Shown here one piece after another: positions 11,809 through 20,893 of a stretch of 24,000 bases of DNA. Source of the DNA: Gordonia sp. (in: high G+C Gram-positive bacteria) (lineage in GTDB: Bacteria; Actinomycetota; Actinomycetes; Mycobacteriales; Mycobacteriaceae); NCBI RefSeq assembly GCF_047602025.1, contig NZ_JASGII010000001.1:619201-643200 (forward strand). Reading direction: 5' to 3'. The notes beneath the pieces are model-generated. The model was not told where the DNA came from and searched no databases. It saw only the letters and a list, made by a program, of their open reading frames with translations. Positions within the stretch are counted from its first letter, which is position 1, and each line of letters opens with the position of its first letter. The translations under genes were made by a program, and so were the position numbers.

Positions 11809-13125
11809 GTGACGCAACCCCCCAACCCCTCCTCGCCCAACTCGCCGTGGCAGTCGTCCGGCACGCCCGGGCAGGTCCCGCCGCAACCCGGCACGACACA
11901 GCCGGGAATCCCGGTGCCGCCCGCACCGGGTGAGTACTCGGCACCGGTCGACTACGCCGCCCCGGCTCCCGTCGCGCCGCCGACCGCCAAGCGCGGCGGC
12001 CGCAAGGTGGCGCTGGCCACCGGCGCCGTCGTCCTCGCGCTGGCCTCCGGCGGAGTCGGCGGCGTCGTCGGCGCCAACCTCGACCGCAACAACCCGCCCG
12101 CCGTCGGCGGCGACCTGCAGCGCGACGGCGAGCCGCAGGCCCAGCCGCCGGCCCCCGAGGGCAGCGTGCAGGCCGTGGCCGACAAGACGCTCCCGTCGGT
12201 GGTGTCGATCCTGGCGACCGTCGGCACCCAGCAGGGCGAGGGCTCGGGCGTGATCCTCAACGCGGACGGCACGATCCTCACCAACAACCACGTCGTCGCA
12301 CTCGGCGCCAAGGCGGCGCGCGGCCCGCAGGGCGGACCCGAGCCGAAGATCACCGTCGTGTTCCACGACGGCTCGCGCGCGACGGCCAAGCTCCGCGGCT
12401 ACGACGAGATCTCCGACATCGCGGTGCTCGAGGTCAAGAACAAGCCGAACCTGCAGCCGATCACCATCGGCTCGTCGAAGAACCTCGCCGTCGGACAGGA
12501 CGTCATCGCGATCGGCTCGCCGCTCGGCCTGGCCGGCACCGTGACCACCGGGATCATCTCGGCGCTCAACCGCCCGGTGTCGACGTCGCGCGTCGGCGAC
12601 AACACGTCGGTGATCGACGCCATCCAGACCGACGCCGCGATCAACCCCGGCAACTCCGGCGGCGCCCTGGTCAACGCGCGCGGCGCGCTGATCGGCATCA
12701 ACACCGCCATCGCCACCCTCGGCGGGCGCGACCCGAACGGCGGGCAGCGCGCGTCGGGCAGCATCGGCCTCGGCTTCGCGATCCCGATCGACCAGGCCAT
12801 GCGGGTCGCCGATCAGCTCCGCAAGACCGGCAAGGCCGATCACCCGAGCCTGGGCGTCACCGTCGGGGCCGCCTCGACCACCGACGACCAGACGCAGTCG
12901 GGCGCGCGGGTGAAGGATGTCGTCAAGGGCGGCGCGGCCGCAGTCGCCGGCATCCCCAGCGGCGCGGTGATCTCGAAGCTCGGCGGACGGACCATCGCCG
13001 GTGCCGACGACCTGGTGGCCGCGGTGCGCTCGTTCTCGCCGGGCGACGTCGTCGACGTTACCTACACGGTGAACGGCAAGACCGAGACCAAGAAGGTCAA
13101 GCTGCAGACCCTGCCCACCAACTAG
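11809..13125 (+). CDS. pepD: HtrA-family serine protease PepD with C-terminal PDZ domain
   Basis: Catalytic triad context TNNHVV / SDIAVLEV / GNSGGALVN. Pro-rich N-terminus, one TM, then a PDZ-like tail. Start chosen at GTG 11809, 7 nt after GAGAGG. The track TTG at 11758 overlaps mprB and lacks an SD. Confidence 0.85.
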   Translation: MTQPPNPSSPNSPWQSSGTPGQVPPQPGTTQPGIPVPPAPGEYSAPVDYAAPAPVAPPTAKRGGRKVALATGAVVLALASGGVGGVVGANLDRNNPPAVGGDLQRDGEPQAQPPAPEGSVQAVADKTLPSVVSILATVGTQQGEGSGVILNADGTILTNNHVVALGAKAARGPQGGPEPKITVVFHDGSRATAKLRGYDEISDIAVLEVKNKPNLQPITIGSSKNLAVGQDVIAIGSPLGLAGTVTTGIISALNRPVSTSRVGDNTSVIDAIQTDAAINPGNSGGALVNARGALIGINTAIATLGGRDPNGGQRASGSIGLGFAIPIDQAMRVADQLRKTGKADHPSLGVTVGAASTTDDQTQSGARVKDVVKGGAAAVAGIPSGAVISKLGGRTIAGADDLVAAVRSFSPGDVVDVTYTVNGKTETKKVKLQTLPTN

Positions 13126-13135
13126 GAGCCAGGCA

Positions 13136-13693
13136 ATGACCGGATCGACCTTCGACGAGACCACGCGCGACGACTCCGTGGCCGACGCCGCCGCGCGCGC
13201 GGCCGCCGCCTCCAGTGATCGCGAGACCGTCGCTGCCCGCGCCCTGGTCGTGGTAGTCGCCGACGACCACCAGGACTCCGACGGGCTCGGCGCCCTGGTC
13301 GGCGAACTCCTCGAGGAGGCCGACTTCCACGTCGACGCGACGGTCGTCGTGTCCGGTGACGAGGTGGAGATCCGCAACGCGTTGAACACCGCGGTCATCG
13401 GCGGCGTCGACGTCGTCATCTCGGTCGGGGGAGTGGGCGTGCGCGCCCGCGACGTCGCCCCCGAGGCGACCGAACCGTTGCTCGACCGGCGGTTGCCGGG
13501 CATCGAGGAGGCGGTCCGCTCGTCAGGCCTGGCCGCCGGAGCCACCGACGCGGGCCTGTCCCGCGGCCTGGCCGGCATCTCCGGGCAGACGCTCGTGGTC
13601 AACCTCGCCGACTCCCGCTCGGCCGTGCGCGACGGCATGGCGACCATCACGATGCTCGCCCACCACGTCATCGACGACATCACTGAGTTCTGA
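13136..13693 (+). CDS. moaB: MoaB/Mog-family molybdenum cofactor biosynthesis protein (MoaB2-like)
   Basis: MoCF-biosynthesis fold motifs (VVISVGGVGVRARDVAPEA, PGIEEAVR, GLAGISGQTLVVNL). Matches the Rv0984 position after pepD. Confidence 0.8.
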   Translation: MTGSTFDETTRDDSVADAAARAAAASSDRETVAARALVVVVADDHQDSDGLGALVGELLEEADFHVDATVVVSGDEVEIRNALNTAVIGGVDVVISVGGVGVRARDVAPEATEPLLDRRLPGIEEAVRSSGLAAGATDAGLSRGLAGISGQTLVVNLADSRSAVRDGMATITMLAHHVIDDITEF

Positions 13694-13703
13694 GGGCGCA
13701 CCG

Positions 13704-13886
13704 GTGACCGAGGACCCGGCCAAGGCCGATCCCGCTGCCGACGATGCGTCGGCGGAACCGGACTGGAAGCGGCGGGCCCGGCTCGACGCGGTCTTCGGCG
13801 GTGACGAGCCGGACCCGGAGGCCCCGCGAACCGGGGGACACGGGGCCGACTGGTATCGGTCAAATCGGCCGCCGCACCATTCCTGA
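13704..13886 (+). CDS. Hypothetical small acidic protein (60 aa), possibly coupled to moaB2
   Basis: GAGGG (13692-13696) lies 7 nt before GTG 13704. GC3 is high over most of the frame. No recognisable domain. Confidence 0.4.
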   Translation: MTEDPAKADPAADDASAEPDWKRRARLDAVFGGDEPDPEAPRTGGHGADWYRSNRPPHHS

Positions 13887-13912
13887 CCAGGTATGCGGGT
13901 ATTCTTACGTGT

Positions 13913-13940
13913 TTGGATGAAGGTAAACCGTTGGTATAGC
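13913..13940 (+). promoter_or_regulatory. Candidate promoter for the porin pair (TTGGAT-16 nt-TATAGC)
   Basis: It lies in a locally AT-richer 90-nt intergenic stretch. TTGGAT is at 13913-13918 and TATAGC at 13935-13940, about 40 nt upstream of the porin start. Confidence 0.3.
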
Positions 13941-13978
13941 TTTGCCGACGGGCACCGACTGGTGCGAGAAGGGTGAAG

Positions 13979-14620
13979 ATGAGCGTGAAGCGTCGTCCGT
14001 CGCGATGGGCGGGTGTGACGGTGGCGTTGGCCACCGCGGCCGCGGTGACGGTGTCGGGACTGGGCGCGGGCGACGCGGATGCGTTGCGCCTGCCGGCCGG
14101 CAAGAAGAAGTCCACCGGGATCGACGGCCAGGTCGTCCTCCTCAAGCGCTCCGCCGAGTACGTCTTCCCGCAGCCGAGTGAGGCGCGCAACGGCGCCGGT
14201 CGCTCCACGCGTGTCTCGGGCACCTACACCGCGCGGATCAACCGCGGCGGCGGCAACGTCCAGGTCGGCTACCTCGTCGGCTGCCAGGTCAACATCGGCG
14301 GCCTCGACATGGGGTTGTCCGGCGGCTTCTACGGCCTGGCGGCTCCGGTGCCGCTGGTCAACGGCACAATCTCGTTCCCGCTGCAGCCCGGCCAGATCCA
14401 GGTGGTCCAGGCGCTGTCGAAGAACTTCTACCGCAAGGTCGTGAGCATCCAGCTCTCCGGCGTGGAGATCGCCGTGCAGAGCTGCGGCGGGTTCGCCCAG
14501 GCGCGCTCGTTCATCAAGGTGCTGGCCGCCGAGGACTACAGCACCGCCAGCGGCACGGTCAGCGGCAAGAGCACGGCCATCCAGACCACCCTCTACGGCA
14601 AGCCGTTCAGCCTCGGCTGA
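13979..14620 (+). CDS. MspA-family porin-like secreted protein 1
   Basis: AGAAGGG then ATG 13979. Signal peptide ends at ...GLGAGDADA. My by-eye alignment to recalled M. smegmatis MspA pairs VQVGYLVGCQVNIGG with LELGYQIGFPWSLG, LQPGQIQVV with GPGIQEV, and C-terminal TTLYGKPFSLG with TTYGEPWNMN. Length about 213 aa, close to the MspA precursor. Confidence 0.7.
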   Translation: MSVKRRPSRWAGVTVALATAAAVTVSGLGAGDADALRLPAGKKKSTGIDGQVVLLKRSAEYVFPQPSEARNGAGRSTRVSGTYTARINRGGGNVQVGYLVGCQVNIGGLDMGLSGGFYGLAAPVPLVNGTISFPLQPGQIQVVQALSKNFYRKVVSIQLSGVEIAVQSCGGFAQARSFIKVLAAEDYSTASGTVSGKSTAIQTTLYGKPFSLG

Positions 14621-14647
14621 CCCGCAGCAAAAGGAACCTTGGACCAG

Positions 14648-15307
14648 ATGAACTCCTTGCGAACCGGCGCTCCGCGCCGGGCGGTCGCCGGCGTCGCCCT
14701 CGTGCTCGCCGCCGCGACCGCGACGATGGCCGCGGCGCCCGGCGCGGACGCCCGCCGCCTGCCCGGCGGCTCGATCAACAAGAAGCTGGTCGACGGTTCC
14801 ACCGTCAAGGCCCGCCTCTACGACGAGGGCGTGCGCTACCACCGCGGCAACGTCGCCAACATCGGGACCAGCCGCGAGGTGTGGGTGTCGGGCAAGATCG
14901 TCGCCAACATCGGCGGCGGTGCCAAGGGTGCGCACATCTACGGCGGCTACGTCGTGGGTTGCCAGGTGAACCTCATCGGGGTTGACGGCAACGGCAACGC
15001 TGGTAACAACCCCTGGATCCCCAACGGCGGCATGATGGGCAACTCCGGCACGACGCTGCACATCGGCCCCGGCCAGGCCGGCTGGGTGCCGATCATCCAG
15101 GCCGTCCCGCAGGCCGGCGGCAACCCGCTCAACACCTTCACCTTCCGAGGCAACCGCGGTGGCCTCGCCTATAGCCAAGAGGGTTTCCGCGTGAACGGCT
15201 GTGCCGGGCACGCGTCGGCCCGAGCCCGATTCACCATCGAGGTCGAGACCGAGACGGTGCGCGCCCAAGTCGTCCTGTGGGGGAAGCCATTCACCCTCGG
15301 CGGCTGA
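14648..15307 (+). CDS. MspA-family porin-like secreted protein 2 (paralog of 13979..14620)
   Basis: Signal peptide ends at ...AAAPGADA. Carries GGYVVGCQVNLIG, HIGPGQAGWVPIIQ and C-terminal VVLWGKPFTLGG. Start is ATG 14648, or TTG 14639 as in the track. The SD AAGGAA is 11 nt upstream of the ATG, so the start is uncertain by 9 nt. Confidence 0.7.
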   Translation: MNSLRTGAPRRAVAGVALVLAAATATMAAAPGADARRLPGGSINKKLVDGSTVKARLYDEGVRYHRGNVANIGTSREVWVSGKIVANIGGGAKGAHIYGGYVVGCQVNLIGVDGNGNAGNNPWIPNGGMMGNSGTTLHIGPGQAGWVPIIQAVPQAGGNPLNTFTFRGNRGGLAYSQEGFRVNGCAGHASARARFTIEVETETVRAQVVLWGKPFTLGG

Positions 15308-15434
15308 TGGGCCGACACAACCACAACTAGGCAACACCCCGGCGCCGCAGCAGCGGTGACGCAGCCGGCGACGATCCCAGCGATCGTCGTGGGCCTATTC
15401 GGTGATGCCGAAGACGATGCTTTGAGGAGCACAC

Positions 15435-16127
15435 ATGACCACGACGCGACAGGCACTCCTGGCCGCACCATTGCTGGTGGCCGGCCTGAGCCTCGGCACC
15501 ACCACCGCATATGCCGATCCCGCGCCCGCGCCGGGCGCCACCCAGCCGGTCAACCCCGGCTCGAAGCTGTGGGACCAGATCAAGAACGGTCTCGGCGGCG
15601 GAAACAACCAGGGCCACGGCCACGACGATCACGATCACGACGGCGACGGCCACGATGACCACGACCACGATGATCACGACCACGACGGCGACGGCCACGA
15701 CGATCACGACGGCCACGACCACGAGGGCGGCACCGGCGGCACCGGTGGCATCCCCGGTGGCACCGGAGGGTCGACCGGCGGCGGGCACAGCTGCAATGAC
15801 GGCCACGGCCACTGCGACAACAACAGCACCGCCGGCGGCGGCATGGGCGGCGGTGGCGGCGGCGGCCACAACCACGGTCACGGTCACGACCACAGCGGTC
15901 ACAACCACGGCTCGACCGGGCCGGGCAGCGCCTACGGCGAGCGTGGCAACGCCCTCGACGACGAGTCGCCGGTGTGCAAGAAGGCGAAGAAGCGCGGCAA
16001 GCGGGTCGTGAAGTGCGCCCCGCCGCGCCGCGGCTCGACCCCGCCGCCCCCGCAGCGGTCGGCGCCCCAGCACGGTCACGACCACCACGACCACGACGGT
16101 CACGACCACCACGGGCACAGCCACTAG
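15435..16127 (+). CDS. Secreted His/Asp/Gly-rich low-complexity protein (putative metal-binding)
   Basis: GAGGAG lies 5 nt before ATG 15435. Signal peptide MTTTRQALLAAPLLVAGLSLGTTTAYA then DPAP. Three His blocks and four Cys (HSCNDGHGHC and VCKKAKKRGKRVVKC). CAC/CAT and GAC/GAT variation falls on third positions of this frame. Confidence 0.8.
   Translation: MTTTRQALLAAPLLVAGLSLGTTTAYADPAPAPGATQPVNPGSKLWDQIKNGLGGGNNQGHGHDDHDHDGDGHDDHDHDDHDHDGDGHDDHDGHDHEGGTGGTGGIPGGTGGSTGGGHSCNDGHGHCDNNSTAGGGMGGGGGGGHNHGHGHDHSGHNHGSTGPGSAYGERGNALDDESPVCKKAKKRGKRVVKCAPPRRGSTPPPPQRSAPQHGHDHHDHDGHDHHGHSH
15612..15725 (+). repeat. In-frame His/Asp run GHGHDDHDHDGDGHDDHDHDDHDHDGDGHDDHDGHDHE
   Basis: By my count, 13 His and 17 Asp in 38 residues. 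CACGACGGCGACGGCCACGA occurs twice. A second block, QHGHDHHDHDGHDHHGHSH, forms the C-terminus (16068-16124). Confidence 0.8.
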
Positions 16128-16256
16128 CGCAACGGAGCAAACTGGCAATCCCCTGTGCATCGCCGTCAGGGTGCCTGAAGTTCCTGGAAATGGGTCAACT
16201 GTCCAGCTAGCGTCGAAGGCGTAGGAAATGGTCGGGACAACGAAAGGGATGTCACC

Positions 16257-16403
16257 ATGCGTCACCACTACGGCCCTCGCCGCTACTACGGCCCGCGCCG
16301 CTACTACGGACCCCGCGGCCCGCGCGGCTACTACGGTCCTCGCCGCTACTACGGCCCGCGCCGGTACTACGGCCCGCGCCCGCGCTACTGGGGTTCGTAC
16401 TGA
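16257..16403 (+). CDS. 48-aa Tyr/Arg/Gly/Pro repeat peptide (YYGPRR)n; not in the supplied ORF track
   Basis: GAAAGGGA (16242-16249) lies 7 nt before ATG 16257. Translation is MRHHYGPRRYYGPRRYYGPRGPRGYYGPRRYYGPRRYYGPRPRYWGSY, ending at TGA 16401-16403. Differences between repeat units are third-position synonymous in this frame (CCT/CCG/CCC, GGC/GGA/GGT, CGC/CGG). Hairpins follow the stop. Confidence 0.7.
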   Translation: MRHHYGPRRYYGPRRYYGPRGPRGYYGPRRYYGPRRYYGPRPRYWGSY

Positions 16404-16408
16404 CCCAG

Positions 16409-16427
16409 CGCTTCCCTAGCGGAAGCG
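16409..16427 (+). other. Small hairpin immediately after the peptide stop codon
   Basis: CGCTTCC (16409-16415), loop CTAGC, GGAAGCG (16421-16427). It abuts the terminator stem. Confidence 0.35.
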
Positions 16428-16480
16428 GATTCGACCACCGGATGAAGACTCCCTGCTTCTCCGGTGGTCGAATCTTATTA
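16428..16480 (+). terminator. Rho-independent terminator or attenuator between the peptide gene and the ABC exporter
   Basis: Perfect 15-bp arms, GATTCGACCACCGGA (16428-16442) and TCCGGTGGTCGAATC (16460-16474), with a 17-nt loop, followed by TTATTA. Confidence 0.7.
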
Positions 16481-16536
16481 GGCTGACAAGAGATCGCGGC
16501 GCCGCCAGGCGGCCCGCACCCCGACCCGAGGATCAG

Positions 16537-18495
16537 ATGGCCCGCAACCGCATGAGGCTCTTCCCGTCCGCTCGGGGCGCTCACCGCGCCCCCGATCGCT
16601 TCGACGAGGATGGCGACTTCGACTGGGCCGAGCAGGCCATGATCGACGAGTCGATCGGCGATGACGCGGTTTCCTGGGACGTCGAGCGCTGGCAGCAGCA
16701 GGATGGCGAGCCGCTGCCCGACGCCATGCTGGTGCCGCCCGCGACCCCGTTGCACGTGTTGGCCGCGATTCGCCGGTTCCGCCCGTACATGAAGGGCCTC
16801 TACGGCCGCCTGGTCCTCGGTATCATCCTGCAACTGGTCGACCTGCTGGCCAACGTCGCCAGCATCGCGCTGTTCGCGACGATCGTCGACAAGGTGCTTG
16901 TGCCCGGCGGCAAGTTTGAGAACCTCGCCCAGCCGATGACCCTGTGGATCGCGGTGACCCTCATCGGCGCGCTCGCCTCCTATTTCGGCGAAGTCCTCAC
17001 CGGTGTCGTCGCCGAGCGCATGGTCATGCGCGTGCGCGACGACCTCTACGAGCACACCCAGCAGCTGGCTCCGCACGTGCGGCGCAAATACCCCTCCGGT
17101 GATCTGATCGCCCGGCACAGCGGCGACGTCGAGTCGACCGAGCACCTGGTGTCCTCGGCCGTCGTCGACGCGACGTTGGCCGTCATCTCGGTCATCGTCT
17201 ATGCGGCCGCGGCGCTGAAGGCCGACTGGAAGCTCGCCATGGTCGCCTTCGTGCTGGCGCCCATCCTGGCGATCATCTCGCGGTGGTTCGGCGTCGTACT
17301 CAAACGCGTGTCTCGCCGCGAGCGGATCGCCAACGGCAAGATCAGCGCCCTGGTCGCCGAGGGCGTCGACAACTCGCTGGCCATCCAGGCAGACAACCAG
17401 GGGCCCGCCGACCGGCGTCGAGTGCGAGCCCAGTCGCTCGAATGGATGCGGGCGCGCGTCACCGAGATCAAGGCAGGCGAGATCTACGGCCAGGCCGTGG
17501 CCATGGTCGAGTTGTTCGTCATGCTCGGCGTCCTCGTCCTCGGGGCCTGGCAGATCACGCACGGCCACACCACCCTCGGTGCGCTGATCGCCCTCACCGG
17601 CTATCTCGGCCAGCTGTACCCGCAGATCCAATCCCTGGGCAGCCTGGCGGTCTCCATCACCACCGCGACGGCCAGCGCCGAGCGTGTCGCCCAGGTCCTC
17701 GACGAGCCGATCGCCATCGCCGACGACGAGGTCGACACCGACCCCGAGTCCGAGCTGCCGGTGCCCGCCGCGCTGCCCGTGCACACCAAGGGTGGGGTGC
17801 CGGTGGCCTTCGAACACGTCGACTTCGCCTACCCAGACTCGGGCACCAAGGTCTTCGACGACTTCAACCTCGACTTGGGCGCGGGCGAGTTCGTCTCCCT
17901 CGTCGGACCGAGCGGCGCCGGCAAGACGACCGTCACGCACCTGCTGCTGCGGTTCTACGACCCGGACTCGGGCACCGTGCGGATCGACGGCACCGACCTG
18001 TCGACCGAATCGCTCACCGCGGTCCGCAACCACATCACCCTGCTGCCGCAGCGGATCGCGATCTACCGCGGCACGATCGCCGACAACATCCGGTTCTCCT
18101 GCCCCGGCGCCTCGCGCGAGGAGATCGTCGCCGCCGCCCGTGCCGCCGACGCACACGACTTCATCGTGGGCCTCCCCGACGGCTACGACACCGAGCTGCG
18201 CGACGCCGGTGCCAACCTGTCCGGCGGCCAGCGACAGCGGATCGCCCTGGCGCGCGCCTTCCTGCGCGACACCCCGGTGCTGATCCTGGACGAGCCGACG
18301 ACCGGCCTGGACGCGGCCACCACCGAGCGCGTCCTGGAGCCGATGATGCGGTTGGCGACCTCGCGCACGACCATCCTGATCACGCACGACGCGGAGCTGG
18401 CGGCCAAGGCGCCGCGCGTCGTCGAATTGACCCCCGTCGCAGACGCGTCGGACGACCGACCCGCCCGGCGGGCCGAGGGAGAGGGAGTCCAATGA
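16537..18495 (+). CDS. ABC exporter, fused permease + ATPase (type I exporter fold) with ~70-aa acidic N-terminal extension
   Basis: GAGGA lies 4 nt before ATG 16537. Six TM segments, then Walker A GPSGAGKTT, Q-loop LLPQ, signature LSGGQRQRIALARAF, Walker B VLILDEPT and H-loop ITHD. Confidence 0.9.
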   Translation: MARNRMRLFPSARGAHRAPDRFDEDGDFDWAEQAMIDESIGDDAVSWDVERWQQQDGEPLPDAMLVPPATPLHVLAAIRRFRPYMKGLYGRLVLGIILQLVDLLANVASIALFATIVDKVLVPGGKFENLAQPMTLWIAVTLIGALASYFGEVLTGVVAERMVMRVRDDLYEHTQQLAPHVRRKYPSGDLIARHSGDVESTEHLVSSAVVDATLAVISVIVYAAAALKADWKLAMVAFVLAPILAIISRWFGVVLKRVSRRERIANGKISALVAEGVDNSLAIQADNQGPADRRRVRAQSLEWMRARVTEIKAGEIYGQAVAMVELFVMLGVLVLGAWQITHGHTTLGALIALTGYLGQLYPQIQSLGSLAVSITTATASAERVAQVLDEPIAIADDEVDTDPESELPVPAALPVHTKGGVPVAFEHVDFAYPDSGTKVFDDFNLDLGAGEFVSLVGPSGAGKTTVTHLLLRFYDPDSGTVRIDGTDLSTESLTAVRNHITLLPQRIAIYRGTIADNIRFSCPGASREEIVAAARAADAHDFIVGLPDGYDTELRDAGANLSGGQRQRIALARAFLRDTPVLILDEPTTGLDAATTERVLEPMMRLATSRTTILITHDAELAAKAPRVVELTPVADASDDRPARRAEGEGVQ

Positions 18496-19193
18496 AGAAC
18501 TGGAAGCTGACGGCGGCGCTCTCCGCGCCGATCCTCGCCGCCGGTGTGCTGATGGGCGGCGGCGCCGTCTACGCCGCACCGGGTGACGGCGGCGGCAACG
18601 GTGGCGGCGGCGGCAATTCCGGCGGCCCGAGCGGCGGTGGTGGCAACCACGGCGGCCCCAGCGGCGGCGGTGGCGACCACGGCGGCCCGAGCGGCGGCGG
18701 TGGGCACCAGGGCGGTCCGGGCGGCGGCCTGGGCGGCGATGGTGGCCGAGGCGGCGACGGCGGTCGCGGCGGTGAGCACGGCGATCGCGGTGGTGACGGC
18801 GGCCGGGGCGGCCACGACCATGGGGATCGGGGCCCGCGCGGCGATCGCGGTGACCGGGGCGATCGCGGCGACCGTGGCGACCGCGGTGACCGGGGCAATC
18901 GCGGTGACCGTGGCCATCGGGGCGATCGCGGACATCGCGGCGACCGTGGCCACTGGGGCGATCGCGGCCCGCGCGGCCCGCGCCACGACCACCGCCACCC
19001 GCGGGGCAACGGCCCGTGGTACGACCCCAACCCGTACAACCGGCCGCACCGGCACAACCCGCGGCAGCGGCCACCGCACTACGGCCCGCAGTACTGGCCC
19101 GAGAACAACCGGCGCTACCGCGAGATGCGTCGGCAGTACCGCGGTCACTACCACTACTACGGCCCGTGGGCGGTCCCGCGCAGCTGGAGCTAG
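18492..19193 (+). CDS. Secreted Gly-rich / collagen-like (Gly-Asp-Arg)n protein with Tyr/Arg/Pro/His-rich C-terminal tail
   Basis: ATG 18492 overlaps the ABC stop (ATGA), and GAGGGAG lies 4 nt upstream. Signal peptide [28 protein letters not shown] then APGD. Next come GGPSGGGG(N/D/H)H repeats, 18 uninterrupted G-X-Y triplets, and the tail ...[26 protein letters not shown]. Confidence 0.8.
18822..18983 (+). repeat. 18 consecutive in-frame Gly-X-Y triplets ([54 protein letters not shown])
   Basis: 9-nt periodic DNA (GGN GAY CGN) with synonymous variation between units. A broader Gly-rich region starts near 18583. Confidence 0.85.
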
Positions 19194-19206
19194 TCGGCCA
19201 TGACTG

Positions 19207-19242
19207 ATTCGGCCCCCGTCCACGTGTGGACGGGGGCCGAAT
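19207..19242. terminator. Bidirectional stem-loop terminator between the collagen-like gene and convergent mscL
   Basis: ATTCGGCCCCCGTCCAC (19207-19223) and GTGGACGGGGGCCGAAT (19226-19242), followed by TCTGTCTG. It sits between stops at 19193 (+) and 19257 (-). Confidence 0.7.
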
Positions 19243-19256
19243 TCTGTCTGTGCCCG

Positions 19257-20048
19257 CTAGCGCGAGTGGCGGCCGGGGTGGTCCGGCGGCAGGTCCGGAT
19301 CGGGGTACCCGGGGTAGCCGCCGTCGGAATACCCCGTGTCGGAGTAGCCACCGTCGTCGTAGCCACCGGCCTGGTAGCCGCCGCCGGCCGGCGGCGGCAC
19401 GGGCGGCTGCGAGCCGGTGGGGTAGCCGCCGCGCGGCTGGTAGGCGCCGGGTGCGGGCGGGGGAGTGCCGACCGGGGGCTGCGAGCCGGTGGGGTAGCCG
19501 CCGCGCGGCTGGTAGGCGCCGGGTGCGGGCGGGGGTCCGCCGACCGGGGGCTGCGAGCCGGTGGGGTAGCCGCCGGCGGGGCGGATCATCGGCGCGGCAT
19601 CGGCCTTGGCCTTCGCGTCGGCCTTCGCGTCGGCGTCAGGATCCATCAGGTTGCGGATCTCGGTGAGCAGCGAGACCTCGGTGTCCTCGTCCTTGTCGCC
19701 ACCGGACACCAGGCCGGACAGCTTGTTGTACGGCAGCACGATGATGAAGTAGACGACGGCGGCCACGATCAGGAAGTTGATCGCCGCGGTGATCACCGCG
19801 GAGAGGTCGACGTAGTTCAGCGCGCTGGTGACGTTGGTGTTGTCCTTGGCGAGCCGGCATTCGCCGATGCAGAAGCCGAGGCCCTTGACGGCGTTGGGGT
19901 CGTTGCCGCCGAACGAGTTGATCAGCGGCTGGATGACCTTCTCGGTGAAGGCGGTGACGATCGCGGTGAACGCGGCGCCGATGATGACCGCCGTCGACAA
20001 TTCGACGACGTTCCCGCGAAGGATGAAGTCCTTGAAGCCTTTGAACAC
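19257..20048 (-). CDS. mscL: Large-conductance mechanosensitive channel MscL with long Pro/Gly/Tyr-rich C-terminal extension
   Basis: GAGAGGGG lies 6 nt before GTG 20048. The N-terminus (V)FKGFKDFILRGNVVELSTAVIIGAAFTAIV is the MscL signature. 263 aa versus about 130-150 aa typical. The track start at 20090 adds 14 non-conserved residues. Confidence 0.85.
   Translation of the reverse strand: MFKGFKDFILRGNVVELSTAVIIGAAFTAIVTAFTEKVIQPLINSFGGNDPNAVKGLGFCIGECRLAKDNTNVTSALNYVDLSAVITAAINFLIVAAVVYFIIVLPYNKLSGLVSGGDKDEDTEVSLLTEIRNLMDPDADAKADAKAKADAAPMIRPAGGYPTGSQPPVGGPPPAPGAYQPRGGYPTGSQPPVGTPPPAPGAYQPRGGYPTGSQPPVPPPAGGGYQAGGYDDGGYSDTGYSDGGYPGYPDPDLPPDHPGRHSR
19405..19574 (-). repeat. 72-bp tandem repeat (~2.4 copies) inside the mscL 3' region
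   Basis: Units begin at 19405, 19477 and 19549. Copies 1 and 2 differ at 3 of 72 positions. On the minus strand they encode GGYPTGSQPPVG(G/T)PPPAPGAYQPR. Confidence 0.85.
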
Positions 20049-20218
20049 TGTGAGCCCCTCTCTCGGTATGCACAGTCTGTTTTTCGCCAAGCGTCCCGAC
20101 CCGAAGACGCAGCACAGTTGGCTGAATCGTAAACCCGGACCCCCACCAGGTCTGTCGTCTGACTTCGAATGGTTGTTTCATCGTGTGCAATCCGAGACGT
20201 TGCCGAATCAACCTCCCA

Positions 20219-20893
20219 TCAGTGGATGACGACGGTCAGTGCCGTGGTCAGACCCGCTGCCGCCACCCGGTTGGCGGCCGTCGATCCCATTGCCAGCAAC
20301 ACCGGCGATCCGCTCTCCCGGCGCCCGGGCTTGGCGCCGCGGCCCAACGCCACGACCGCCCCCTCGGCGACGACGACCGGCGGATCGCCCGCCCCGCCCT
20401 TGGTGAGGACGTCGACGACGTCACCGGGCTCCAGGAGGTCGGCGGTTCCGGTGTCGGCGAGGTGGACCGGGACGAGCCGGGCGCGCGGATCCCCGACCAG
20501 GCGGCGCGGCAGTCGCGAGCCGAGCAAGCGCGAGTCGGTGAGGATCTCCCCGCGCCGGACGGCCGAGGTCACCGTGCGGCCGCGGGCGTCGGCCGACAGC
20601 GCGAGGGCGCCGTCGGGAACGATCTCGGGGCGCACGCGCAATACCGCGACGTCGTCGGCGGTCAGCGGCGCCCCCGGCCGCAGGTCGCGGGTCGCGACGA
20701 CCACCGCGTCGCCGGGCGCCGCGCGCCGATCGGCGAGGAACGCACCCAGGGCCGCGAGCACCAGCAGGGCCGCGATAGCGCGTCGGACGAGGATCGACCG
20801 GGTCCAGCCCGGGCGCACCGCCCGGCGCGCGCGATCGCGCCAGCGCGGTGCCAGCTCGTGCCCCCGGCGGGGGCGTGTGCGCCGATCAGCCAT
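20219..20893 (-). CDS. SAF-domain (RcpC/CpaB-like) membrane-anchored protein
   Basis: Arg-rich N-terminus, one TM (AIAALLVLAALGAFL), then a VVVATRDLRPGAPLTADDV...RRGEILTDSRL SAF-like module. No obvious SD, so the start is uncertain. Confidence 0.7.
   Translation of the reverse strand: MADRRTRPRRGHELAPRWRDRARRAVRPGWTRSILVRRAIAALLVLAALGAFLADRRAAPGDAVVVATRDLRPGAPLTADDVAVLRVRPEIVPDGALALSADARGRTVTSAVRRGEILTDSRLLGSRLPRRLVGDPRARLVPVHLADTGTADLLEPGDVVDVLTKGGAGDPPVVVAEGAVVALGRGAKPGRRESGSPVLLAMGSTAANRVAAAGLTTALTVVIH

Follow-up and report, generated by a model that had tools for sequence, protein, structure and literature searches.

In this work, we examine a stretch of 24,000 nucleotides from a Gordonia sp. 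genome (contig NZ_JASGII010000001.1, positions 619,201 to 643,200; hereafter the window, G+C content 70.9%), and particularly an open reading frame (ORF) of 233 amino acids (aa) that lies directly 3' of a gene for an ATP-binding cassette (ABC) half-transporter. By its composition and its conservation, this ORF is a genuine protein-coding gene. With moderate confidence, we read its product as a clade-restricted envelope protein, predicted to be non-globular and exported by the Sec pathway, whose repeat core would have given rise, in one sub-lineage, to a short Arg-stabilised collagen-like tract. The gene is limited to a small Gordonia clade that comprises the window, a Gordonia metagenome-assembled genome (MAG), Gordonia crocea and one metagenomic contig. 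What is new is a short, Arg-rich, lineage-specific collagen-like tract within a clade-restricted secreted low-complexity protein; the kind is already known, and the case is a modest curiosity.

The repeat protein and its gene

Three orthologues, recovered by way of the orthologues of the ABC gene, can be set beside the window protein: one of 233 aa in the Gordonia sp. MAG (locus L085), one of 163 aa in G. crocea (L081) and one of 165 aa in the metagenomic contig (L087). In the window, the start codon of the gene (ATG, 18492-18494) overlaps the stop codon of the ABC gene (TGA, 18493-18495) in an ATGA arrangement, downstream of a Shine-Dalgarno-like purine tract (Table 1), and purine tracts are found at the equivalent site (GGAGGAG and GGAGAGGAAG) in L081 and L085. 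The product starts with a predicted signal peptide of the Sec type, in which an MKNWK n-region precedes a hydrophobic core (maximal 12-aa Kyte-Doolittle mean of 2.05) and a cleavage site with small residues; neither a Cys lipobox nor a twin-Arg motif is present in it. The window protein thus has the features expected of a Sec pre-protein, and the same layout is seen in all four orthologues. The predicted mature chain of 205 residues is 35% Gly and carries 34 Arg+Lys, 23 Asp+Glu and 17 His, with no Cys and an isoelectric point (pI) of 10.8.

The body of this chain is made of repeats. Three full decapeptide units, GGPSGGGG followed by NH, DH or HQ, give way to looser GG(D/R) units, and further on comes an uninterrupted run of 18 Gly-X-Y triplets (11 GDR, 3 GPR, 2 GHR, 1 GNR and 1 GHW), which holds 9 RGD tripeptides and under which the DNA shows periods of 9, 18 and 36 bp. 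Given the local Gly fraction of 0.35, the probability of finding Gly at 18 consecutive third positions is ~6e-9 per start site, and the tract is therefore a tandem-repeat product and not a chance run. No Pfam or NCBIfam domain was found in the repeat protein or in the flanks of the tract. The single-sequence AlphaFold2 (AF2) model, with a mean predicted local distance difference test (pLDDT) of 47, contains one short helix at low confidence (204-216) and is uninformative on trimers.

A first-pass annotation of this DNA, made from the sequence alone, had described the ATGA overlap with GAGGGAG upstream (the ribosome-binding site, RBS), the Sec-type signal peptide, the 18 triplets dominated by GDR with GHR substitutions and the Tyr/Arg/Pro/His-rich tail that ends the protein, and we found all of these again, the tail being confirmed in the translation. 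Its formula for the decapeptides, GGPSGGGG(N/D/H)H, agrees with the 30-bp period and its 4.2 copies, but the third unit ends in HQ. It had also argued that the synonymous variation among the triplets supports translation in this frame, and this holds: the tract uses GGC 13, GGT 3, GGG 1 and GGA 1 times for Gly, GAC 6 and GAT 5 times for Asp, and CGC 10, CGG 4 and CGT 3 times for Arg, and its differences from the unit consensus are distributed 8/3/23 over codon positions 1/2/3 (p = 7e-5).

The four orthologues have in common a Sec-type signal peptide, a Gly-rich stretch and a highly charged Asp/Arg/His block with His clusters (HxH, HxHxH or HHH in each of the four). The signal peptide is the best-conserved segment of the family: APILAAGVL is invariant in three orthologues and reads APLIAAGVL in the fourth, and a small-x-small cleavage motif is present in all of them (VYA/A, VHA/A, AQA/V and AHA/E, the stroke marking the cleavage site). 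At the other end, an aromatic and basic C-terminus is clear in three of the four. Ten C-terminal residues are identical in the window and L085; the G. crocea protein has GPFRIPKNWS at this place, and the L087 protein has diverged strongly there.

Could the frame be a spurious one, held open by GC-rich tandem repeats 3' in the ABC operon? High-GC repeats do keep several frames open, no stop codon interrupts the antisense frame -0 at any of the four loci, and the repeat protein is absent from the matches in the protein collections that were searched. We nevertheless regard this as very improbable. In the non-repeat ends, the G+C contents at the three codon positions (GC1/GC2/GC3) are 0.66/0.55/0.93 for aa 1-29 and 0.70/0.56/0.96 for aa 161-233, which is the pattern of the other genes of the window, GC3 being high while GC1 and GC2 are normal. 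The RBS, the start codon, the signal peptide and the C-terminal motif are conserved although the frame has gone through length differences of up to 210 nucleotides (nt) among the orthologues, and the in-frame start and the C-terminal WS-stop are retained across proteins of 163, 165 and 233 aa. The NG86 omega is 0.40 for the alignable ends of the repeat-protein gene, versus 0.21 for the ABC gene, which therefore indicates relaxed but purifying selection. The differences between repeat units are biased by codon position, as given above, and gene callers independently annotated the orthologues on their contigs.

The antisense and alternative frames were considered as coding candidates and rejected, as the plus-strand frame is favoured by its G+C content by codon position, its RBS, its signal peptide and the conservation of its ends; open antisense frames are usual in high-GC coding DNA. 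Two long antisense open frames, 18183-19223 (-) and 16252-19074 (-), of 346 and 940 aa, overlap the ABC and repeat-protein genes. Both have an atypical G+C content by codon position and no supporting features, and they look like high-GC shadow ORFs.

Coupling to the exporter gene and distribution

The ABC gene encodes an exporter-type half-transporter with an acidic N-terminal extension of ~90 aa. Its top NCBIfam matches are of the MsbA, CydD and HlyB types, all of them under cut-off, and the Pfam scan gives only ABC_membrane and ABC_tran, with no C39 peptidase domain. No gene for a membrane-fusion protein of the HlyD type was found among the scanned ORFs of the window. Orthologues of the ABC protein are 79-84% identical in G. 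crocea, G. araii and other Gordonia, and 50-61% identical in further Gordonia, so the window comes from a Gordonia of the crocea/araii group. A scan of a genome collection with the ABC protein returned only paralogues of ~30% identity, and exact-sequence look-ups of the repeat-protein ORF and of two start variants of the ABC protein found nothing on record. Two ways of making the repeat protein a substrate of this pump were considered and rejected: a type I secretion (RTX) substrate, given the signal peptide and the lack of an RTX-type Pfam match and of an HlyD-type gene, and a cargo with a double-glycine leader, the ABC protein being without a C39 domain.

Downstream, a hairpin that is likely a bidirectional terminator separates the repeat-protein gene from the convergent mscL gene. 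The stretch of 71 nt that contains it (19190-19260) folds at -50.2 kcal/mol (z = -9.2 versus shuffles), and an Rfam scan of positions 13000-20500 gave nothing but sub-threshold noise on this hairpin. Since this hairpin lies between it and mscL, the ORF closes the ABC unit as its last cistron.

The repeat-protein gene stands directly 3' of the ABC gene in each of its four carrier loci. The first-pass annotation had asked whether the coupling is conserved in orthologous loci: adjacency is conserved in all four, and the ATGA overlap in three (the window, L085 and L081), but L087 has a 13-nt spacer and an RBS of its own. The ABC-mscL arrangement is also kept without the repeat-protein gene in L083, in Gordonia sp. 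TBRC 11910 (L082) and in a G. effusa-type contig. L083 has an ABC protein of 80-85% identity, yet no repeat-protein gene. In L083 and L082, the stop codon of the ABC gene is followed at once by the terminator hairpin, as seen in the sequence; for the G. effusa-type contig the absence is taken from gene calls only. In a tree of the ABC proteins, the carriers and L083 form one clade, with L082 and the G. effusa-type contig as outgroups, so that the pattern of presence and absence fits one gain and one loss. The ABC gene being kept without the repeat-protein gene in these three loci, the exporter does not need the repeat protein, and the earlier argument from translational coupling to a functional tie between the two is a weak one. 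Overlaps of 4 nt between genes are a common packing feature in actinobacterial operons. We take the ATGA coupling to indicate co-expression and not dependence, and the gene reveals no new mechanism of export.

A homology search with the whole protein gave low-complexity matches (collagens and the tails of ribosomal proteins S6/S18), with no orthologue and no self match. A profile of the conserved tail had words in common with a single candidate, and nothing reached a score. An exhaustive HMMER search of 1.8 billion representatives gave 11,742 matches, with no family member among the best 150; these 150 are all long proteins, matched on their Gly-rich or collagen-like part. A metagenome scan with an alignment of three of the proteins recovered only an unrelated Gly-X-Thr/Lys collagen-like protein (L086). 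Searches of 5.8 billion proteins and of 1.8 billion representatives missed both the window protein and its orthologues, though gene callers had annotated the orthologues, and low-complexity proteins of such a kind seem effectively invisible to those indexes.

The Gly-X-Y tract and what the protein may be

The longest Gly-X-Y run has 18 triplets in the window protein, 16 in L085 and 4 in G. crocea, the core of which is built of GGDRQQ and DRxRQDR units; L087, by reading, has no such run. All changes in the Gly slot are synonymous, 5 of them in the window and 8 in L085 (13 in total, with 0 non-synonymous), while the X slot changes freely, and a Gly at every third position is therefore selected in both. 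In the Y slot of the window tract, 7 changes are synonymous and 1 is non-synonymous. The L085 protein passes the Pfam Collagen model (PF01391; 29.5 bits versus a threshold of 27.2); the window protein has no match to this model even at E <= 10, and the G. crocea and L087 proteins have no match either. Compared with the PDB and with the 1.8 billion representatives, the tract finds essentially collagens only. Judging from the four proteins, it is composition that the family conserves, and not the triplet, and the Gly-X-Y tract would be a derived feature of the lineage of the window and L085, not an ancestral one.

In the explanation that we prefer, that of a Sec-exported and non-globular envelope protein, the gene is transcribed together with the ABC gene and is usually coupled to it in translation through the ATGA overlap. 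Its product would be exported by Sec and not by the ABC pump, the signal peptide being cleaved after Ala28. The mature chain would stay in the cell-wall zone as an extended, non-globular and strongly basic polyampholyte (pI about 10.8), where the cationic, aromatic tail would probably retain it and bound metal at the His/Asp clusters may help. In its core, short in-frame repeats are gained, lost and replaced, probably by slippage, and in the window and L085 this core consists of 16-18 uninterrupted, constrained Gly-X-Arg triplets. These may zip three chains into a short collagen-like rod of ~15 nm, as a lineage-specific elaboration. The ABC exporter would function without the repeat protein, co-expression being the link between the two.

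Several points weigh against this explanation. Export, cleavage, localisation, oligomeric state and the binding of a metal or other ligand are all deduced from sequence, and the signal peptide was called by eye and hydropathy only. The family as found here amounts to four members (the window, L085, L081 and L087), with the close relatives G. araii and P0040 outside the comparison. The best-conserved part of the protein, its N-terminal hydrophobic segment, equally fits an uncleaved membrane anchor in contact with the ABC transporter. Finally, Gly and the Arg of the Y slot are strictly kept in two species, which points to a genuine constraint on structure, and to call the chain mainly disordered may understate the collagen reading for this strain.

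That reading, in full, is of a bona fide bacterial collagen: a homotrimeric helix held by Arg in Y and by Arg-Asp pairs, forming a fibre, at the surface or in the periplasm, that would work jointly with whatever substrate the ABC transporter exports. We find it possible but tentative, and we are likewise doubtful, without dismissing it, that a triple helix forms in this strain. Of its 18 uninterrupted triplets, 17 have Arg in Y, and in host-guest peptides Arg in this slot differs from hydroxyproline by about 0.1 deg C at most (PMC12862961). Collagens usually prefer acidic residues (Asp/Glu) in X and basic ones (Lys/Arg) in Y (PMC3368898), and charged residues stabilise Scl2, which is without hydroxyproline (PMC8968730). 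The Gly unsubstituted through 13 synonymous changes in two tracts, the passing score of the sister orthologue in L085, the collagens as only matches in the PDB and in the 1.8-billion-protein library and the conserved adjacency to the ABC gene also speak for it. On the other side, the periodicity is missing in two of the four orthologues (G. crocea and L087), and the window protein stays below the Pfam model. Its 18 triplets fall well short of the 50-79 of Scl1/Scl2, proteins that also depend on a V domain for trimerisation (PMC8968730), and no trimerisation or nucleation domain was detected here with Pfam, NCBIfam or the AF2 single-sequence model, although the conserved 38-aa tail could serve as a nucleator. 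His and Trp stand inside the tract (GHR, GHW) but are absent from characterised phage collagen domains (PMC3368898), and the ABC gene that this reading ties to the fibre is kept alone in three loci. Of the earlier claim that a collagen-like helix is possible, the Gly-X-Arg chemistry and the constraint on Gly in two species hold up; against it, the periodicity is not family-wide, no trimerisation domain was detected and the tract is short.

The His clusters and Asp blocks could alternatively make the protein an extracytoplasmic buffer or chaperone that binds Zn, Ni, Cu or Co near the MspA porins encoded upstream, the repeats multiplying the sites. Clusters in all four orthologues and the 17 His and 23 Asp+Glu of the mature chain are in keeping with this, as is a second secreted ORF of the cluster (15435..16127), which has HDDHDHD and HGHDH repeats, a similar signal peptide and a weak ZrgA match. 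But the His content is moderate (5-8%) and Arg dominates, and a net charge of about +11 disfavours the binding of cations. No metal-responsive regulator, riboswitch or known metal-transport gene is found nearby, and the ZrgA match of the second ORF is far under cut-off (14.6 versus 185 bits); we hold a metal-binding role to be unlikely. We give still more reserved consideration to an accessory subunit or cargo of the ABC transporter, docked on it by an uncleaved N-terminal anchor or secreted through a type-I-like C-terminal signal. The strong conservation of the N-terminal hydrophobic segment would suit an anchor, the ATGA coupling would help the two proteins to be made in near-equal amounts, and Gly/Asp repeats with a conserved C-terminus next to an ABC exporter have a superficial RTX look. 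This seems rather improbable to us, with a small-x-small cleavage motif in all four orthologues, three loci that keep the ABC gene alone, no membrane-fusion protein, C39 domain or RTX nonapeptide match, and an orthologue, in L087, that is without the overlap and most of the tail motif. As a long shot, one may picture the ABC exporter, a 48-aa YYGPRR peptide encoded upstream of it and the repeat protein as one envelope module beside the MspA porins. The pump would export the peptide, and a hydroxyproline-free, Arg-stabilised collagen stalk of 18 triplets would span the space from plasma membrane to mycomembrane; its tail, similar to the peptide in being Tyr/Arg/Pro-rich, would capture this peptide or organise it.

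Should the 54 residues of the Gly-Asp-Arg tract indeed fold as a triple helix, they would rank among the shortest and simplest natural hydroxyproline-free collagen segments. Nature would then have provided a clean test of how Arg in Y and Arg-Asp pairing stabilise collagen, which would be useful to the design of collagen mimetics. In the four orthologues one can see, as is seldom possible, how a collagen-like tract emerges from an ordinary Gly/Asp/Arg low-complexity region by amplification of 9/18-bp repeats and is then held by purifying selection. For the biology of Gordonia, the gain would be a clade-specific envelope component beside porin genes.

Neighbouring features and comparison with known systems

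The order of the genes around the repeat-protein gene is mprA/mprB-like, pepD-like, moaB, MspA, MspA, ABC, repeat-protein gene and then mscL on the minus strand (Table 1), with a SAF-domain gene and moeA 3' of mscL. The MspA pair and the ABC exporter stand inserted between the moaB-like gene and mscL, beside the mprA/mprB/pepD-like envelope-stress cluster. The porin-porin-ABC order is held in all the loci of this arrangement that reach far enough upstream (L081, L082, L083, L085 and L087), and G. pseudamarae (L088) has an ABC homologue of 53% identity in an unrelated context. MscL carries a C-terminal extension of ~130 aa, rich in Pro, Gly and Tyr, and its length ranges from 270 to 317 aa across related loci.

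Table 1. Positions of the repeat-protein gene, its parts and its neighbours in the window
Feature	Position	Strand	Basis or remark
Response regulator (mprA-like)	9601	+	gene order of the window
Histidine kinase (mprB-like)	10233	+	gene order of the window
HtrA/PepD-type protease (pepD-like)	11719	+	gene order of the window
MoaB-type protein	13073	+	gene order of the window
MspA-family porin gene 1	about 13973-14620	+	first of tandem pair
MspA-family porin gene 2	14639-15307	+	second of tandem pair
Secreted His/Asp-rich ORF, 230 aa	15435-16127	+	predicted signal peptide MTTTRQALLAAPLLVAGLSLGTTTAYA, then DP; HDDHDHD, HGHDH and HNHGHGHDH runs; four Cys
Leaderless (Tyr-Tyr-Gly-Pro-Arg-Arg)n peptide, 48 aa, MRHHYGPRRYYGPRRYYGPRGPRGYYGPRRYYGPRRYYGPRPRYWGSY	16257-16403	+	RBS, high GC3, no Pfam match
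Hairpin and U-rich stretch after the YYGPRR peptide gene	about 16427-16476	.	z = -5.4
ABC half-transporter, exporter type (transmembrane and nucleotide-binding domains)	16537..18495	+	Pfam ABC_membrane 9.7e-30, ABC_tran 1.2e-31
Shine-Dalgarno-like purine tract GAGGGAGAGGGAG	18475..18487	+	read directly; proximal GGGAG ends 4 nt before ATG
Secreted Gly/Asp/Arg/His-rich repeat protein, 233 aa	18492..19193 (stop codon 19191-19193)	+	translation
Sec-type signal peptide, aa 1-28, predicted cleavage V-Y-A/A-P	18492..18575	+	basic n-region, hydrophobic core, small -3/-1
Gly-rich decapeptide repeats GGPSGGGG(N/D/H)(H/Q)	18603..18728	+	Tandem Repeats Finder: period 30 bp, 4.2 copies, 85% matches
Collagen-like tract, 18 uninterrupted Gly-X-Y triplets, aa 111-164	18822..18983	+	Arg in Y 17/18
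His-cluster and Pro-Arg-rich segment (HDHRH, HRH)	18984..19076	+	His clusters between core and tail in 4/4 orthologues
Conserved Tyr/Arg-rich C-terminal tail	19077..19190	+	aligned with L085 and G. crocea (YYYFGPFRIPKNWS)
Hairpin, 17-bp stem, likely bidirectional terminator	19206..19243	.	between convergent repeat-protein gene and mscL
mscL	19257-20090	-	convergent with repeat-protein gene
72-bp tandem repeat in mscL	19400-19579	-	2.5 copies, 95% identical; encodes PGAYQPRGGYPTGSQPPV-type units

Two small ORFs lie between the second porin gene and the ABC gene. The YYGPRR peptide has orthologues of its type in G. crocea (L081 5687-5848) and in L085 (4631-4801), and none in L083, L087 or L082. 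It could be a cargo of the adjacent ABC exporter, yet the exporter is conserved without it. We considered and rejected its homology to the tail of the repeat protein, for composition explains the scores (8 to 383 of 500 shuffles reach the observed value in 12 comparisons). The His/Asp-rich ORF looks like a secreted metal-binding protein, with a signal peptide similar to the one on the repeat protein. It has no Pfam match and only the weak NCBIfam match to ZrgA (zinc uptake) mentioned above. It is borne by ~0.8 kb of DNA located between the second MspA gene and the ABC gene, a segment missing in L081, L083, L085, L087 and L082.

Several known systems resemble parts of this one. Like the His-rich periplasmic metal binders (ZrgA and ZinT-type segments), the repeat protein is predicted to be secreted, with clustered His and Asp, and it has as a neighbour a window-specific ORF that is strongly His/Asp-rich; unlike them, it has no family-level match above any cut-off and no metal-regulon context. 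With the RTX-type substrates of type I secretion, it shares Gly/Asp tandem repeats, conservation at the very C-terminus and the location of its gene beside that of an ABC exporter of the HlyB/MsbA fold class. It differs from them by its N-terminal Sec signal peptide, the lack of GGxGxDxUx nonapeptides and of a membrane-fusion or TolC-type partner, and an exporter gene that is conserved without it. The PE_PGRS proteins, Gly-rich surface proteins of mycobacteria, are likewise fast-evolving, repeat-driven, Gly-rich and exported in a mycolata envelope, with in-frame turnover of their repeats; the repeat protein, however, has no PE domain or ESX link, and shows a Sec signal peptide, a charged Asp/Arg core and a tiny single-copy family.

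The closest known kind is that of the bacterial collagen-like proteins (Streptococcus Scl1/Scl2, Bacillus BclA, Legionella Lcl; PF01391). The repeat protein is like them in its predicted secretion, in its uninterrupted hydroxyproline-free (Gly-X-Y)n with acidic X and basic Y, and in a number of repeats that varies between relatives. Unlike the Scl proteins, with their 50-79 triplets, it has 18, and neither a trimerisation domain nor an anchor such as LPXTG can be recognised in it. Unlike collagen-like proteins in general, it misses the Pfam model in the window, has His and Trp in its tract and lacks this tract in half of its orthologues. Moreover, whereas the collagens of Gram-positive bacteria are rich in Pro, Thr and Gln, the tract of this Gordonia protein is made of nearly pure Gly-Asp-Arg.

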